The notes: generated from the letters alone by a model not told the origin. 32,000 nucleotides of DNA from Candidatus Saccharimonadota bacterium (GCA_016700135.1 CP065004.1:990001-1022000); one strand, 5' to 3'. Shown: positions 20,380-28,770, counted from the first letter of the stretch. Program-made: numbers and translations.

Positions 20380-20452
20380 TCGGGACGACTGGACTTGAAC
20401 CAGCGACCTCACGGTCCCGAACCGTGTGTTCTACCATCTGAACTACGTCCCG
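20380..20452 (-). tRNA. tRNA-Pro (anticodon CGG)
   Basis: Hand-folded 73-nt cloverleaf: acceptor CGGGACG/CGTCCCG, D arm GTTC-AGATGGTA-GAAC, anticodon arm CACGG-TTCGGGA-CCGTG (CGG with G37), variable loop AGGTC, T arm GCTGG-TTCAAGT-CCAGT, discriminator A. CCA is not encoded. Confidence 0.9.
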
Positions 20453-23185: not shown

Positions 23186-23824
23186 ATGGCAAGCAAACTC
23201 CCGAAATCATTACAAAAGGTATCTTTATTTCTTGAGAGACTGCCAGGAATCGGAGAAAAATCAGCCAACAGGCTGGCTTTTTACTTACTCCGAATGCCTG
23301 AAGGAGATCTGAAGGATTTTGCGGAAAACGTCTCCGAACTCAAAGTCAGAACCAAACGGTGTAAAGTCTGTATGAACCTGACTGAACAGGAACTGTGCGG
23401 TATCTGCGAAGATCCTTCAAGAGACAGATCGCAAATCACGGTTGTTGAAGATGTACTGGATTTATTGTCGATGGAGACCGGGAATATTTACAGCGGGATG
23501 TATCATGTTCTGCACGGTCGAATAGATCCGCTGAATCATATCGGACCCGAAAATATTTTCATTGACCAGCTGTTTGAACGTGTCAGAGATGAAACGAAAA
23601 ACTTAGATACTCCTGTCAAAGAAATCATTCTTGCTACCAATCCTGATATGGAAGGCGAAGCAACTGCCATGTACATCCGGAATAAACTGCAGGAACTTAT
23701 CTCGTCAAAGAATCTCGATTGTACCGTCTCCCGTCTAGGATACGGAATGCCGATGGGTGGCAACCTCGAGTTTGCTGACTACATGACACTGAGAAAAGCC
23801 CTTGAAAACAGGCGAGGTATGTAA
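23186..23824 (+). CDS. recR: Recombination protein RecR
   Basis: Has the HhH segment (LPGIGEKSANRLAFYLL), a C4 zinc finger (CKVCMNLTEQELCGIC) and a Toprim domain. Confidence 0.95.
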   Translation: MASKLPKSLQKVSLFLERLPGIGEKSANRLAFYLLRMPEGDLKDFAENVSELKVRTKRCKVCMNLTEQELCGICEDPSRDRSQITVVEDVLDLLSMETGNIYSGMYHVLHGRIDPLNHIGPENIFIDQLFERVRDETKNLDTPVKEIILATNPDMEGEATAMYIRNKLQELISSKNLDCTVSRLGYGMPMGGNLEFADYMTLRKALENRRGM

Positions 23825-23857: not shown

Positions 23858-24778
23858 ATGAAAGAGCTCAGAAGGTTACTGCTGAACGGTATGAAAGAAC
23901 GGAGTGATCATTCTGGGTTGGTTTTTCCCGCGATGGCAGAAAGGCAGTTTGCCATTAATCGGAAAATAGCTTCAATTGTAAATCCGTCCCCCACTCACCA
24001 CCTTCTTGATATCTGTTCTGGCGCGATGGGATTGTACGATTCTGTTGAGTGTGCCTATACCGGTATGGATATTTCCCATTTATCTCTCGAAGCTCATCCG
24101 TCCGACTACGTCGTGCAGGCTGATGCAGCATCTCTACCGTTTGGGGACGATCTTTTTGATCATGCTGCTTGTGTAATGGCTTTGCACAGTTCATTTTCTA
24201 CTGCACAAACCATAGGGGAAGTATCCCGAGTCCTGAAGAGGGGCGGTGAATTTACGTTGGCGGAAAACGGAATTTCTCAGTGGATATGTAATTTGATCCT
24301 GTTAGGAAGTGATTTCGGAAAGGTTTTAAGCGAAAAAGAATATATTATGGCAGAGTCTTTTTTCAAAGAACGCACTATTGATCCGGAAGAGTACGTTGAG
24401 CTCACTTCACAGGACCTTTTCGGACAATCAGCCCGGAGATTATTTGCCGATGTGCAAATCCCTGAAAGTATCTCGAAGAAGCAAAGGCATTCTCTGAGGT
24501 ATTCCATGGTTCGTGCGATGAATGAAGCCTTTCATCGGAATGTCGAAAGTCACATTGGTCAAAACGGGCTGGTTCCGTTAAGAAAATCAATTATCCCTGT
24601 TTATGGGGATAAAGAAATATGGTCGGTCGCAGATCCGATCCCATTGGATCCGGAGATCTACACAGCTGAACAGTACCGAAAGCTCAATGAAGAGGGTTTA
24701 GATGGTGTTCCGACGCCTGCCGATCTCCGAACTGCCTCAATCCTCTATCTTTTTGTAGATACATACAGGAAGACGTAA
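23858..24778 (+). CDS. Class I SAM-dependent methyltransferase with an uncharacterised ~150-aa C-terminal region
   Basis: Motif I-like LLDICSGAMG, plus YTGMDIS, ASLPFGDDLFDHAACVMALH and LKRGGEF. The C-terminal half has no recognisable motif. Confidence 0.6.
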   Translation: MKELRRLLLNGMKERSDHSGLVFPAMAERQFAINRKIASIVNPSPTHHLLDICSGAMGLYDSVECAYTGMDISHLSLEAHPSDYVVQADAASLPFGDDLFDHAACVMALHSSFSTAQTIGEVSRVLKRGGEFTLAENGISQWICNLILLGSDFGKVLSEKEYIMAESFFKERTIDPEEYVELTSQDLFGQSARRLFADVQIPESISKKQRHSLRYSMVRAMNEAFHRNVESHIGQNGLVPLRKSIIPVYGDKEIWSVADPIPLDPEIYTAEQYRKLNEEGLDGVPTPADLRTASILYLFVDTYRKT

Positions 24779-24857
24779 TCCCTTCTTACGTTGCTTTCAT
24801 CTAAAAAGAAGATAATAAGATATCTTCTGACAAGTGTGTATTATAATTAAGTTTCTT

Positions 24858-26126
24858 ATGTCATTTAAGGACTCAGGTTCTTCTCCATTGGATGATCAGT
24901 GTATTGCAGCCGGAAATCCAGAAAAGAAGATAGTATTTTATACGATTCCCGAACATCCACTTAGCGGAGCGGGTTCAAATGGCCTAACTCCCCTTTCTGA
25001 AAAGCTTGTTCAGTTTACTTCATATGAACGGGATGTATGGTTTCTTGATCCGGTATCGACGGGTCTTGCATCGGTTTCTCCCCAAGAGTTTGCCGAGTAC
25101 TACATTCCCTCGACACCGTCTGCCGAACTTGAACGTGCCTTGCTCTACGCCGGAAATGAAACATTTGACGAATTGCATGAATATACCTGGGAGCGTATTC
25201 AGCAGATGTTTGCAGGCATCGGCGTTGAAAATTATCAGCACCATTTTCCCAATATCCAGAAAGCATTTGGTATCGTGGAAGAACTTATGAAGACAATGCC
25301 TCGCAGACGAACAGGTGAACCTTCAGTCGCGCATATCTATCGCAATGTACTGCGGATAATTGAGTTTATTGAAGGTTATAATGAGATTTATACATCACGC
25401 GATGAATCTCCGATTTTTACTCCCGAAATTGCTGAATTTTATGTCTGTGCCTCTGCAATGCATGATTTTTTGGAGGACTATTCCGAAATACCCGGTATCG
25501 GTTACCAACGGGGACGCTGTGAAGAAGTGCGGAAAACCGAGTTTGAACAGTGGGGTCAGGGTGCACATTTTTATCGGGCCATCACTCCGGATCTCCAATC
25601 TCAGCAGGAGGACAAAATACAGGAGATAACGCTTGATTTCGGGGAATATGAAAACGATATGTTTGTCTCAACTTTACTTGCTCTCAAAAGTGATAACGTA
25701 GAAGCCGGTCAATTGATGGATCATCTGGAAGGGACTGTCGGTGAGCTCCAGGGAAGATATGATCAGAGAATCATACAAAATCAGCTGTATTCCGTGGCGG
25801 CATATGTCATCAAGTGCTGCGACAGATTGGACAACAATGCCACCTATCTTTACTCCAGAGCACCTTCAGGTGAGTTGATTGCCACTCATGCAGGAAGAGT
25901 GTACAACAAGGCCTCGGAAAATCTGATTCTCTTCAATCATGTTCTTGATGTGTTGAAACGTATTGCAGGTCATGAAAACCTCTCCACAGATGAAATTGCC
26001 CGTCTGAAACCGTTCTATCTGAAGTACGATCCTACCCGCTGGTCCAAACTGGTGCTCGCCGGTGCTCCACTCAATACAATCTATCATCCGAATGAAAAAG
26101 GAAAAGGGATTGCAAAAATCCTCTAA
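24858..26126 (+). CDS. Divergent RelA/SpoT-type HD-domain protein (small-alarmone-hydrolase-like core with long N- and C-terminal extensions)
   Basis: RRRTGEPSVAHIYRNV matches the RxSGEPYxxHP region. MHDFLEDY matches LHDxxEDT. IKCCDRLDNNATYL matches KLADRLHNMRTL of RSH hydrolase domains. Start set at MSFKD, with TATAAT 10 nt upstream. Confidence 0.6.
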   Translation: MSFKDSGSSPLDDQCIAAGNPEKKIVFYTIPEHPLSGAGSNGLTPLSEKLVQFTSYERDVWFLDPVSTGLASVSPQEFAEYYIPSTPSAELERALLYAGNETFDELHEYTWERIQQMFAGIGVENYQHHFPNIQKAFGIVEELMKTMPRRRTGEPSVAHIYRNVLRIIEFIEGYNEIYTSRDESPIFTPEIAEFYVCASAMHDFLEDYSEIPGIGYQRGRCEEVRKTEFEQWGQGAHFYRAITPDLQSQQEDKIQEITLDFGEYENDMFVSTLLALKSDNVEAGQLMDHLEGTVGELQGRYDQRIIQNQLYSVAAYVIKCCDRLDNNATYLYSRAPSGELIATHAGRVYNKASENLILFNHVLDVLKRIAGHENLSTDEIARLKPFYLKYDPTRWSKLVLAGAPLNTIYHPNEKGKGIAKIL

Positions 26127-26162
26127 TATGTAAGAAATTCTGCATACTGAGCTCAATTCTAT

Positions 26163-26201
26163 TTGACTTTCTTACCTAATATTAACAAAATATGATAAAA
26201 T
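26163..26201 (+). promoter_or_regulatory. Putative promoter for the leader transcript
   Basis: Two candidate arrangements. TTGACT (26163-26168) is followed by a 17-nt spacer and CAAAAT (26186-26191). Alternatively, TAAAAT (26196-26201) lies 8 nt before the leader ATG. Confidence 0.3.
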
Positions 26202-26209
26202 AAACTTTT

Positions 26210-26284
26210 ATGGACATATCAAATCATCAAATTTCAACCCTTCGATTCGTTGCCCTTATGTATGGGGGGTTGGCGCGTTGGTGA
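26210..26284 (+). CDS. 24-codon leader ORF (MDISNHQISTLRFVALMYGGLARW) upstream of the synthetase-like gene
   Basis: Hand-translated ATG..TGA frame, too short for the ORF track. Its 3' third contains the 5' strand of a predicted antiterminator helix. Confidence 0.35.
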   Translation: MDISNHQISTLRFVALMYGGLARW

Positions 26285-26309
26285 TTTACAGTTACTAACA
26301 ACAAAAGCC

Positions 26310-26334
26310 AACCGCCAAAGAGGCGGTTTTTTTT
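26310..26334 (+). terminator. Intrinsic terminator ending 10 nt before the start codon of the downstream gene (attenuator terminator)
   Basis: Stem AACCGCC (26310-26316) pairs with GGCGGTT (26322-26328) around the loop AAAGA. The T run extends to 26334, giving 8 T in total. Confidence 0.65.
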
Positions 26335-26344
26335 CACAAAGTGT

Positions 26345-27730
26345 ATGTCAGAACATTCGAAACAATATTCAACAATTGACATGATCGACTTTAACAAAGT
26401 CGAATTGTCCCAAGAACTTTTGGGAAGCTATTCTCCTTTAGCTTTACGCGTTTATGAACGCGGAAGAAGGGGTCATCAACGATTGCATAATCCGACACAT
26501 GCACCTTTTGATGAAATGTCTGTTCAAATTCCTGCTCATAAGTATATCGAGAGAATGAATCGTGAAATGTTTGAATACATTTGTGATGTATACGATGTTA
26601 CGCCGGATCGTGCTGAAGATATCCTCTTTAATGCATTCAGCGATGCAAACCGTTTAGTCACGAGTACTCTTGCACATGCTTTACCTGAGGAGCATGCAAC
26701 ATCATTCGGATTACGGAATGAGGTTTTATCATTCGTGGCGGATGAACCCGGTGACCGTATCTGGCAGATGGCGCATCAGGCACGTGATGATCGGGAAGAA
26801 TTTCAGTTATTCCAGCAACTGCAGTTGGCTCATCCTTTGATAGATCTCCATGCAAGCTATCCGCAGAGACGCGTGAAGGGTCTGCTCTATCGCATGCAGG
26901 GACTTCTGAATGAAGATTTGTACAACGGAGAAAGTCATAAAGGTAATGATGATCTGCATTTTGCGACATGGCACAATCCTGAGGATAATGCGTTTTTAGG
27001 ATATGATCCTGTTATCGGCGGAGTACCGCTTTTTCACAACGTATCTGCAAGAAGGCTAAAAGACGGCAATAACAGTATTCATATTATGACTAATTTCCGT
27101 GAAAAGGATCCGCATACTGCAATGGGTAAGTTGTTAGCCAAAACACTAATGAACGGTGATCCGGTCCTTGATATGCACCGTCATGTACAGGATCTGGCAG
27201 GATTGAGATTGACTGTTCTCGGCGGGACCAGGGAGCGGGACATGGTCTATCAGAGAGTCCTGGATGTGTTGAATGAACGAATGATCAAGCAGGCCAGAGA
27301 GCCGTTATCTTCCTCGAAGCTGCATATTGCTGACATTGAAGATGATTGCCACATTGACGGCCGCTCGAAAAACGGACATATTGACTGGAGACGCAGCAAA
27401 GTATGGCTCATAGATCCTTCAAAAGGGACAATAATGAGACAGCCCATTGAGCTGGTTGTTGATGATTACGGGCTGCTCATGAACGGAAGCTACTATATCG
27501 GAGATAAAAATGATCCGAGACTTCCTGAAGCTCATCTTGAGTTTGAAAGAAAACGTGCGCAGAATCCTTTATTCGGGTTTCTCTTTCCCACTGATGTATA
27601 CAGATCTGCTTATGAATCTATCGACATTGAAGGGGAAATGGCAAAGAAACGCGATGAAAACCGACGCGCATTGAGAATACATCCTGAGGCTCCTCAGGAA
27701 TTAGTTCTGGGAGACGGTATTGTTTGGTAA
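26345..27730 (+). CDS. Divergent RelA/SpoT synthetase-fold (nucleotidyltransferase) protein with a ~240-aa unknown N-terminal region
   Basis: FREKDPHTAMGKLLAK matches GRVKxxxSxxxKxxRK. VQDLAGLRLTV matches xQDIAGLRIxx. NGHIDW matches xGYRSxH. PIELVVDD occupies the position of EIQIRT, with the Glu kept and the Gln and Arg replaced. Confidence 0.55.
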   Translation: MSEHSKQYSTIDMIDFNKVELSQELLGSYSPLALRVYERGRRGHQRLHNPTHAPFDEMSVQIPAHKYIERMNREMFEYICDVYDVTPDRAEDILFNAFSDANRLVTSTLAHALPEEHATSFGLRNEVLSFVADEPGDRIWQMAHQARDDREEFQLFQQLQLAHPLIDLHASYPQRRVKGLLYRMQGLLNEDLYNGESHKGNDDLHFATWHNPEDNAFLGYDPVIGGVPLFHNVSARRLKDGNNSIHIMTNFREKDPHTAMGKLLAKTLMNGDPVLDMHRHVQDLAGLRLTVLGGTRERDMVYQRVLDVLNERMIKQAREPLSSSKLHIADIEDDCHIDGRSKNGHIDWRRSKVWLIDPSKGTIMRQPIELVVDDYGLLMNGSYYIGDKNDPRLPEAHLEFERKRAQNPLFGFLFPTDVYRSAYESIDIEGEMAKKRDENRRALRIHPEAPQELVLGDGIVW

Positions 27731-28663
27731 GGACTTTAATTCGTCGGCGATTGCTTTACTGATACTGACTTCCTGCATTTTTTCAAAACGATATTCTTCT
27801 TTGAGAGCGATCGTATCTGTCGTAAAGAATGCCTGAAGCGGTGAGTTTTGCAGTTTTTCCGCTGTTCCTTCTGCAAAATCCCGATGGACAATTGCGGCAA
27901 TGACGCTGGTGGCTCCCTGTTCCAGGGCAAATTCTGCGGCGTGGATGAGAGTACGTCCCGATGTTGCGACGTCGTCAACGATAATCGCAGTCTTGTCTTT
28001 TACGTCTCCGTAGAGATTCAGCGCTTTACTTTCATGCATATGCTGAAGATCACGTTTCTTTTCCGTGACGGCAAGATTGAAATCAGAATGTCCGAACAAC
28101 ACTTCCCCGAATTTTCGTGCCCGTTCGATTCCCCCCTGATCCGGAGAGATGACGGCTACGTGCTCGGGATCTGCCTGGATGTTGTTTACCTGAAGGTATT
28201 TATGAATTTCTTCGGCAAGTACGGGAAATGCGGAAATATTTTTAAACGGAATATCAAATACTCCTTCAGTTGCCTCATCATGCAGATTGACAGTGTAGAC
28301 TTTGTGGATCCCGATAGATTCAAGGAACCGGATAATAACATTTGCCGAAACACATTCTCCGGGACGATGCTGGATATCCTGTCTGGCATACCCGAAATAT
28401 GGGATCATTGCAATAACACGTCTTGCCTCTTCCCGTCTCAGAGCATCAGCCATAAGAAATAGTTCCATGAGATTTGAATTGGTGGGGTTCGATGTCGACT
28501 GGATAATAACACAGGTATCATTTTTGACGTCTTCTTCCACGCGTACCCGCACCTCTGAATTCTCAAACTGTACAACTTCAACTTTTGCTAGCGATTGGTT
28601 GAGCCCATTTGCAACTTGTTCTGATAAGGGTTGATTTGATGTACCGGAAAAGAGTTTGAGCAT
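27701..28663 (-). CDS. prs: Ribose-phosphate pyrophosphokinase (PRPP synthetase)
   Basis: Carries MLKLFSGTSNQPL, MIPYFGYARQD and the PRPP-binding loop AIIVDDVATSGRTL. Start set at MLKLF, because the longer track ORF translates an intergenic repeat. Confidence 0.93.
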   Translation of the reverse strand: MLKLFSGTSNQPLSEQVANGLNQSLAKVEVVQFENSEVRVRVEEDVKNDTCVIIQSTSNPTNSNLMELFLMADALRREEARRVIAMIPYFGYARQDIQHRPGECVSANVIIRFLESIGIHKVYTVNLHDEATEGVFDIPFKNISAFPVLAEEIHKYLQVNNIQADPEHVAVISPDQGGIERARKFGEVLFGHSDFNLAVTEKKRDLQHMHESKALNLYGDVKDKTAIIVDDVATSGRTLIHAAEFALEQGATSVIAAIVHRDFAEGTAEKLQNSPLQAFFTTDTIALKEEYRFEKMQEVSISKAIADELKSLPNNTVSQN

Positions 28664-28670
28664 GGTCGTT

Positions 28671-28770
28671 AGGTTGTAGCTGGTAGGCCCGCCGTTTGGC
28701 GGAGTTGGCTGTAGGTTATTGGTAATTCCAGTAATCATTCATACCGGCTACCAGCTACCACCTACGCCTT
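28671..28770. repeat. Intergenic hairpin repeat, copy A (MITE/REP-like)
   Basis: About 100 nt. The terminal arms AGGTTGTAGCTGGTAGGC and GCCGGCTACCAGCTACCACCT pair in 16 of 18 positions. By hand alignment it is about 85 percent identical to copy B. Confidence 0.8.

Follow-up and report, generated by a model that had tools for sequence, protein, structure and literature searches.

Bacterial starvation signalling is built around enzymes of the RelA/SpoT homologue (RSH) superfamily, which also supplies toxins and phage-defence effectors. Two adjacent genes, here called A and B, in a 32,000-nucleotide (nt) stretch of DNA (CP065004.1:990001-1022000, assembly GCA_016700135.1; hereafter the window) raise the question whether they are the hydrolase and the synthetase half of such an enzyme, and if so, whether they act as a toxin-antitoxin (TA) pair or in signalling. 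The window comes from the chromosome of a Candidatus Roizmanbacteria bacterium (Candidate Phyla Radiation (CPR)/Patescibacteria), and the open reading frame (ORF) of gene B is 100% identical to the NCBI entry ‘hypothetical protein IPM65_05310’. A first-pass annotation, made from the sequence alone, had placed both ORFs correctly on the plus strand (Table 1) and had quoted motifs that are indeed all present in the two proteins, with key residues that are invariant or nearly so across the respective families.

With a probability of about 0.58, we read the two genes as a divergent alarmone-type hydrolase (A) and synthetase (B), the synthetase being under translation-sensing attenuation, and not as a TA module. 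The claim of the first-pass annotation that the halves of an RSH enzyme lie in two neighbouring genes is supported by remote homology, which is acceptable for A and makes the case for B probable, not proven.

Gene A: very likely an RSH-type HD hydrolase fold

The ATG at 24858 is favoured as the start of gene A over an in-frame GTG at 24834 by the N-termini of homologues and by conserved upstream DNA. A word-indexed search of 5.8 billion proteins returned ten homologues, none with a Pfam domain, and the known homologues (~10) all come from a single CPR clade. In an alignment of 11 family sequences (35-96% identity), R150, T152, E154, H159, H202, D203, E206, D207, K319, D322, R323, N326 and N327 are invariant, while G153 and P155 are nearly so. 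A sequence-profile search of the PDB with this shallow type of alignment returned no RSH chain.

An RSH-HD profile built from 11 genuine sequences (E. coli SpoT and four further long RSHs, plus six small HD proteins encoded on plasmids) matched the A family with an hhalign probability of 83% and P = 8.5e-6, compared to P = 0.12-0.27 for control profiles. Permissive hhalign settings aligned three blocks of A with their RSH counterparts, namely RRTGEPSVAHIY with RxSGEPYIxH, MHDFLED with LHDxxED and IKCCDRLDNNAT with IKLADRxHNMRT, so that R150/R151, G153, E154, P155, H159, H202, D203, E206, D207, D322 and N326 match SpoT and small alarmone hydrolase (SAH) motif columns. Together with the conservation in the 11 sequences, this bears out the three HD hydrolase stretches, in the right order, that had been read from gene A at first pass. 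Furthermore, when a hidden Markov model (HMM) of the A family was run on a mixed panel of 25 RSH sequences, nine HD sequences took the first ranks. We take the Mn2+-binding and catalytic residues of RelSeq to be H53, H77, D78, E81, D82, D144 and N148, which corresponds to the order R..G.P..H, HD, ED and D...N. All residues for Mn2+-dependent pyrophosphohydrolysis are kept in A, from which an active hydrolase is predicted.

The AlphaFold 2 (AF2) model of A has a mean predicted local distance difference test (pLDDT) of 77 and a predicted template modelling score (pTM) of 0.81. Its best PDB folds in Foldseek are the P. aeruginosa SAH (6yvc/6z3o), T. thermophilus Rel (6s2u), C. glutamicum RelH (7qod) and Mesh1 (3nqw), with probabilities of up to 0.99, a template modelling (TM) score to target of 0.59 and an E-value of only ~0.13; phosphodiesterases (PDEs) are also found, ranked under the RSH hydrolases. 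Compared to the HD domains of SAHs and long RSHs (Mesh1, P. aeruginosa SAH, C. glutamicum RelH, Rel/SpoT), A has equivalent motif order and identity as well as the helical HD fold. It differs in size, as known SAHs comprise about 180-200 amino acids (aa) and A has 422 aa, with an N-terminal extension of ~130 residues, an insertion of ~55 residues (209-262, partly beta-hairpin) that separates HD..ED from the third motif, and an extra C-terminal segment of ~75 residues; unlike known SAHs, it is undetectable with Pfam and NCBIfam models. The unusual size noted in the first-pass annotation is thus correct for A, and likewise for B with its helical N-terminal domain of ~200 residues. By fold and family, A is very likely a divergent RSH-type HD hydrolase.

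Gene B: a probable RSH-synthetase-like family

The start of gene B at 26345 is backed by the conserved ATGTCAGAA and by N-terminal alignment. The word-indexed search yielded five homologues, again without any Pfam domain, and an exhaustive HMMER search of 1.84 billion cluster representatives extended the family to 85 clusters at E <= 1e-3 and 38 at E <= 1e-10 (clusters counted at 50% identity). Members are nearly all 410-470 aa long (about 430 aa) and were matched end to end. The B family is real, moderately large, unnamed by curated resources and restricted to the CPR. R236, K262 and D283 do not vary in any of 88 members (about 18-85% identity to B), and N215, K254, R350, E369, H397 and R404 are conserved in at least 90%; R252 and K266 do not vary in the 19 closest sequences. 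K254 and K262 are eight residues apart, presumably the same spacing as in the RxKxxxSxxxK motif of RelSeq, RelQ and RelP.

Four kinds of search compared B with known folds and sequences. The AF2 model of B (pLDDT 89, pTM 0.89) consists of an all-helical N-terminal and an alpha/beta nucleotidyltransferase domain, and its first 15 Foldseek matches in the PDB are all small alarmone synthetases (SASs; RelQ 5dec/5ded/5f2v, RelP 6ewz/6fgx and 3l9d), with probabilities of up to 0.98, E-values of 0.014-0.12 and TM-scores of 0.37-0.47. FaRel (8pu1) follows at rank 26, and the only other family at lower ranks is DNA polymerase mu. Among viral models, the top match (E = 0.029) was Tas1, an RSH-fold (p)ppApp synthetase. 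When the 88-sequence B profile was run with hmmsearch against 177,635 PDB sequences, the best match was B. subtilis YwaC/RelP (E = 0.053), with TnpReKddesavlKalrKa...VqDlaGimfV aligned to TKSRVKSFESIVNKLMRK...IHDIAGVRII; a profile search of the PDB with a shallow B alignment gave nothing relevant, and RelP came out on top only with the 88-sequence profile. Finally, hhalign against an RSH-synthetase profile of 9 and then 14 sequences, including the phage toxic SAS (toxSAS) Phrann gp29, gave P = 2.1e-3 and 1.6e-3, respectively, and 5.6e-4 for the C-terminal domain alone, compared to 0.05-0.84 for four controls. It placed R252xK254, D283 and E369 on the columns of RxK, the Mg2+-binding Asp and the Glu of EVQIRT. 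These results agree in direction and in residue mapping, while none is significant singly.

The ordered synthetase motifs reported for B at first pass are there; RxK, Asp and Glu are present, conserved and aligned, with weak scores, to the RSH-synthetase profile. The proposed NGHIDW motif fared less well: it is conserved in the closest subfamily, and family-wide only R350 is kept. The stretch of B aligned to NGYQSLH (residues 339-344) has a pLDDT below 50 and is unconserved, and G-loop or stacking-Tyr acceptor motifs are not recognisable in the B family. Compared to SASs (RelQ/SAS1, RelP/SAS2/YwaC, RelV) and RSH-fold toxins (FaRel, FaRel2, CapRel, PhRel, Tas1), B keeps R-x-K-(8)-K, D-x-x-G-(I/L)-R and the Glu strand in order, and it differs by its 461 aa with the helical N-terminal domain and by the lack of the Gln and Arg of EIQIRT. 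Given the altered EIQIRT strand and the N-terminal domain, it is plausible that B has a new acceptor specificity. By fold and family, B is probably RSH-synthetase-like. That A and B carry out actual alarmone chemistry is a more tentative proposal, which we hold to be somewhat short of an even chance.

Two ideas about the accessory regions were rejected. The N-terminal domain of B is not a degenerate HD domain as in RelA (hhalign P = 0.58, no long-RSH fold match), and A and B do not have accessory domains in common (hhalign P = 0.24). A divergent member of the B family with 604 aa (L026/L027, 5001-6815; loci of relatives are numbered with the prefix L) carries an N-terminal extension of ~150 residues and lies between aspS and recJ. 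A gene for a CCA-adding/poly(A) polymerase-HD protein adjoins it, and the leader described below is absent there.

The similarity of A and B to RSH enzymes might also be confined to the superfamily level. A would then be a generic HD phosphohydrolase and B a pol-beta-like nucleotidyltransferase, for example a nucleotide- or RNA-modifying enzyme, with incidental adjacency and no alarmone chemistry. The failure of all database HMMs, Foldseek E-values above 0.01, the presence of DNA polymerase mu just under the SAS matches of B and of PDEs among the matches of A, the unconserved EIQIRT and the lack of co-conservation of the two genes would all fit such a scenario. On the other hand, A aligns the RSH-specific R-x-x-G-E-P-x-x-x-H, HDxxED and KxxDRLxN, which goes beyond the HD dyad, and RSH hydrolases outrank all other HD families. 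For B, SAS, RelP or Tas1 came first in four independent searches, and the R-x-K(8)K...D spacing is that of the synthetase motif. Moreover, wherever a locus has both genes, they are neighbours in the order HD then synthetase. We therefore regard a purely superfamily-level resemblance as unlikely, although it is the strongest of the competing explanations, and retain the assignment of both genes to the RSH superfamily.

A likely attenuator ahead of gene B

The 218-nt spacer between A and B (26127-26344) is better conserved than the flanking proteins, with 82% identity per column over four loci that include one whose B protein is only 24% identical. It contains a sigma-70-type promoter (Table 1) whose -10 element reads TAAAAT, TATAAT or TACAAT in relatives; TTGACTTTCTTAC and the -10 position are kept in L007, L008, L003, L001, L079 and L083. 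Downstream of the promoter lies a short upstream ORF (uORF). An ATG-initiated uORF of 23-25 codons occupies the equivalent position in all eight complete leaders and contains an invariant His followed by Ile or Leu. Its frame, its length and a stop just past the second of four pairing segments (segments 1-4) are kept in the eight leaders despite strong divergence, and synonymous uORF positions are unusually conserved. A GC hairpin with a T-run precedes B in L001, L003, L007, L008, L024, L025, L079 and L083, and in most loci this terminator (5-9 T) lies 3-19 nt before the B start.

Folding of the full leader gave a minimum free energy (MFE) structure with a long anti-antiterminator helix between segments 1 and 2 (1:2) and the 3:4 terminator. 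When the 3' arm of the terminator was withheld, the MFE structure switched to 2:3 pairing. The sequences of this helix differ between loci: GGUUGGC pairs with GCCAACC in the window, GGGUUGACUUGU with ACAAGUCAACC in L003, GCGGGU with ACCCGC in L025, and GGGUGAUGUGUU with AACACACC in L079 and L083. The RNAalifold consensus is the 2:3 helix, with compensatory changes in three of seven pairs. Its cells are paired in 87.5% of cases, compared to 75.3% in shuffles and at most 45% in slid registers, and its covariation score of 0.398 exceeds the 0.178 of shuffles (0/500 reach the observed value). The leaders fold more stably than dinucleotide shuffles, with z-scores of -1.8 to -5.1. We consider it likely that the region before B has the architecture of a trp-type attenuator, and this leader-peptide switch, probably previously undescribed, probably turns B on when translation stalls.

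The layout resembles the trp, his, leu, thr, pheA and ilv attenuators in its short 5' ORF, its four segments with exclusive 1:2, 2:3 and 3:4 helices and its adjacent terminator. It differs from trp-type attenuators in that it controls the gene of an RSH-like enzyme and not an amino-acid biosynthesis operon, has a single His-Ile/Leu instead of tandem regulatory codons, occurs in the CPR and belongs to no Rfam leader family. The Rfam search of the spacer found no riboswitch, T-box or leader family (best E >= 0.18, unrelated families), and the score of the Trp_leader model (16.9 bits, E = 3.4) is noise. The spacer as a riboswitch or T-box was discarded, as it is without Rfam support.

Still, the spacer could be a gene for a small protein or small RNA that ends in a terminator of its own, or a riboswitch that binds a metabolite or tRNA, in which the apparent uORF is incidental. 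In favour of this, the leader is equipped with a promoter and a terminator and could be a stand-alone transcript, regulatory codons do not occur as a run in the uORF, and AGGGTGGT in L001 is reminiscent of a T-box sequence. In addition, the unusual conservation of synonymous uORF positions indicates that an RNA-level constraint exists. This explanation is nevertheless unlikely, slightly more so than the superfamily-level one above: Rfam offers no riboswitch, T-box or leader family, the frame, the length of 23-25 codons and the stop site are kept in all eight leaders, the terminator stands 3-19 nt before B in most loci, and the exclusive 1:2, 2:3 and 3:4 pairing with covariation is the classical layout of an attenuator, which remains our preferred view of the spacer.

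Gene order, co-occurrence and the toxin-antitoxin question

In all relatives whose DNA was fetched, with the exception of the 604-aa outlier L026, the gene of the B family is located between recR and prs. The syntenic loci are L001, L003, L007, L008, L024, L025 (inverted), L079, L081 and L083, and the constant order is recR-[variable]-B-prs-ybaB-dnaX-ybeY-rpsU, with RNase J also flanking. Additional loci were sought in two scans: a genome scan with the close B alignment gave two loci only, and a metagenome scan for the terminator plus ATGTCWG gave 49 stretches, of which two were new B loci and the remainder chance matches.

The co-occurrence of the two genes was determined by an HMM scan of six-frame translations of 16 loci, representing about 11 distinct lineages. 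Both genes are found in four lineages (the window/L028, L007, L008/L059/L071 and L003), B without A in at least five (L001, L025, L079, L081, L083) and A without B in two (L005, L006). Where both occur, they are always adjacent and on the same strand, with A before B, which is the domain order of long RSHs; their distance is about 200-218 nt across loci, with a promoter and a terminator between them. The comparison of gene neighbourhoods that the first-pass annotation had called for thus shows no co-conservation of the pair.

That annotation had put forward, as a possible interpretation, that B is a toxSAS and A its SAH-type antitoxin. There is precedent for such a system, as an SAH antitoxin neutralises a toxSAS in the type IV TA system FaRel/ATfaRel (PMC7229694), where SAS-like and SAH-like genes are likewise adjacent on one strand. 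The proposal would also fit the terminator just before the B start, which keeps B off as would be appropriate for a harmful product, and the variable unknown genes in the recR-prs interval. Several observations speak against it. In contrast to FaRel/ATfaRel, the two genes are not co-conserved, and B is alone in most related lineages, in which a toxSAS that depends on A could not persist. The genes do not form a tight bicistron, as they are 218 nt apart and B has its own promoter. Unlike the SAS toxins, B is a chromosomal core gene in fixed synteny at a constant site among housekeeping genes, and not a TA, type VI secretion system or prophage gene; there is no prophage, island or other mobile or defence context. 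PADLOC gave no match for A or B, and the variable upstream genes have no recognisable antitoxin domain in common. We therefore consider the toxSAS/antitoxin interpretation very improbable.

The interval from recR to B is a variable slot, which is occupied by a gene for an S-adenosylmethionine (SAM) methyltransferase in the window; relatives (L005, L006, L007, L008, L025, L079, L081, L083) have unrelated ORFs of 94-389 aa there, which lack Pfam domains. In L005 and L006, small unknown ORFs take the place of B after A. Two records, L028 and L029 (CAZDDM010000026.1 and CAZOSM010000002.1), are titled ‘uncultured Gammaproteobacteria bacterium’, while both the genes they carry and the name that NCBI gives to the identical protein point to Roizmanbacteria; the titles are probably mislabelled. 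The RSH match in L086 (MG065691.1, ‘UNVERIFIED Campylobacter phage A11a’) is identical to E. coli spoT and was dropped, as it is probably an assembly contamination.

A model of the locus

Together, these results suggest that A and B are separately transcribed genes of housekeeping type and extremely diverged members of the RSH superfamily. A would be an enlarged HD enzyme that keeps the residues of (p)ppGpp 3'-pyrophosphohydrolases and presumably their activity. B would use R-x-K and K to contact the ATP phosphates and Asp and Glu to bind Mg2+, in line with a putative pyrophosphokinase activity for which GTP/GDP, ATP or an RNA 3' end are candidate acceptors. As to regulation, the architecture of the attenuator and its covariation were computed, and the direction of regulation and the signal are our proposal. 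A ribosome that reaches the uORF stop would cover segment 2, so that the 3:4 terminator forms before B. If the ribosome stalled early, near the conserved His-Ile in segment 1, segment 2 would pair with segment 3 and B would be transcribed. Impaired translation would hence switch on the alarmone-type synthetase B, and A, where present, would remove the product. The net effect may be a stringent-like response by transcription attenuation, in a lineage-specific signalling unit and not a TA or defence system.

It may be speculated further that the Roizmanbacteria group possesses a stringent-like response in which an attenuator that senses stalled translation replaces the ribosome-docked RelA/Rel that senses uncharged tRNA. 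The stand-alone, highly diverged RSH-fold pyrophosphokinase, with its altered acceptor site, may then make a product other than (p)ppGpp, and the oversized hydrolase would reset the system in some lineages. We consider this extended scenario rather unlikely as a whole.

A number of observations weigh against our reading of the locus. Neither protein matches any model of Pfam-A or NCBIfam even at E <= 10, including HD_4, HD and RelA_SpoT for both, and RelA_SpoT is touched by only one of the 88 B-family members at E = 0.063 in a Pfam scan that otherwise gave noise. The Pfam families named in the first-pass annotation are thus not recovered by curated HMMs, while the comparisons of profiles and fold are positive for HD_4-type similarity of A and the fold comparison of B points, with weak scores, to RelQ, RelP and, at a lower rank, FaRel. 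The structural matches have a large root-mean-square deviation, low TM-scores and Foldseek E-values of only 0.014-0.13 for A and B, and the hhalign probability of B is only 14-30%. The Gln and Arg of EIQIRT, correctly reported as lost at first pass, are absent throughout the B family, which has the consensus P-I-E-L-I-F; B could therefore perform different chemistry or be a generic pol-beta-like nucleotidyltransferase. On the RNA side, the attenuator was derived from 8-9 leaders, which represent about four independent groups only, L081 and the 604-aa L026 have no leader, the uORF has neither a tandem nor a run of regulatory codons beyond the single conserved His-Ile/Leu, and it could instead be a small protein gene.

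The census of RSH enzymes published in 2020 (Jimmy et al. 2020, PMC7229694) distinguished 30 SAS and 11 SAH subfamilies, which were defined by HMM searching. That A and B went undetected by the Pfam and NCBIfam models tested suggests that HMM-based RSH censuses would miss them. In the literature searched, we found no work that deals with RSH enzymes of CPR bacteria or with SAS genes under the control of an attenuator. If our assignments hold, two deep branches restricted to the CPR, one with at least 85 clusters at 50% identity, are added to the RSH superfamily, and the locus would give a first point of entry to the alarmone metabolism of ultra-small symbiotic bacteria. The B family would be a new family with a new N-terminal domain on an RSH-synthetase core. 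Its attenuator would be a new cis-regulatory RNA in a phylum with almost no characterised regulation, and would bring a known regulatory logic to a target and a phylum that are both new; a trp-style attenuator would couple translation status to alarmone synthesis by transcription and not by ribosome binding.

Genomic surroundings and further features

The local gene order is RNase J, recR, SAM methyltransferase, A, B, convergent prs, ybaB and dnaX. Table 1 gives the positions of these and the other features of the locus.

Table 1 Features of the A-B locus and its surroundings. Positions are counted from the first nucleotide of the window; ranges given for the domains and motifs of A and B are protein residues.
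Feature	Position	Strand	Description
RNase J	21465-23177		gene upstream of recR
recR	23186-23824		between RNase J and SAM methyltransferase
SAM methyltransferase	23858-24778		between recR and gene A
Upstream region of A	24779-24857	+	conserved
TTCTTAC	24783-24789		upstream of A
Imperfect palindrome	24807-24828		AGAAGATA..TATCTTCT, upstream of A
GATAAT	24811-24816		conserved; overlapped by the imperfect palindrome
TATAAT	24842-24847		conserved; 10 nt before the ATG of A
Gene A	24858-26126	+	422 aa, very likely with a divergent RSH-type HD hydrolase domain
Domains of A			HD hydrolase ~130-345; insertion ~209-262 (low confidence); N-terminal extension of ~130 residues; C-terminal helical extension
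Motifs of A			R150-R-T-G-E-P..H159; H202-D203..E206-D207; K319..D322-R-L-D-N326-N327
B promoter	26163-26191	+	sigma-70-type; TTGACT, 17 nt, CAAAAT
Leader uORF	26210-26284	+	24 codons, ATG start; MDISNHQISTLRFVALMYGGLARW followed by a stop
Segment 1	~26221-26244		middle of the uORF
Segment 2	~26263-26287		3' end of the uORF
Antiterminator 2:3	26263-26313	+	GGUUGGC..GUUGGUGAUU pairs with AGUUACUAAC..GCCAACC; overlaps the 5' arm of the terminator
Intrinsic terminator 3:4	26310-26334	+	AACCGCC-AAAGA-GGCGGTT, then 8 T; ends 10 nt before the B start
Gene B	26345-27730	+	461 aa, helical N-terminal domain and a probable RSH-synthetase-like domain
Domains of B			all-helical ~1-200; alpha/beta nucleotidyltransferase ~200-445 (AF2 model)
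Conserved core of B			R236, R252-x-K254, K262, K266, D283, R350, E369, H397, R404
prs	27701-28738	-	phosphoribosyl pyrophosphate synthetase; convergent, fixed downstream neighbour of B; Pfam annotation of syntenic genes

Upstream of A, an alignment of seven loci shows that ...TGACAAG.GTGTATTATAATTAAGTTTCTTATGTCAT is nearly invariant in the five closest ones. Since TATAAT is only 10 nt away from the ATG of A, the leader of the A mRNA would be very short or missing and would contain no Shine-Dalgarno sequence. B and the uORF are likewise without an obvious one. An 8-nt inverted repeat, GTAAGAAA (26130-26137) ... TTTCTTAC (26168-26175), brackets the -35 element of the B promoter, and the related TTCTTAC is kept upstream of A; repeat and TTCTTAC may be a common operator that co-regulates both genes. 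TTTCTTAC was also considered as a window-wide promoter motif and rejected, as four matches compared to 1.5 expected are not significant.

Across the 32-kb window, the sole Rfam family found at gathering thresholds was tRNA, with one gene at 20380-20452 on the minus strand (67 bits). The 3' ends of B and prs overlap by 30 nt. Just inside the 3' end of B and adjoining this overlap lies a perfect hairpin, TCCTGAGG-CTCC-TCAGGA (27682-27699), which has no T-run and may be a bidirectional terminator or a stabiliser.

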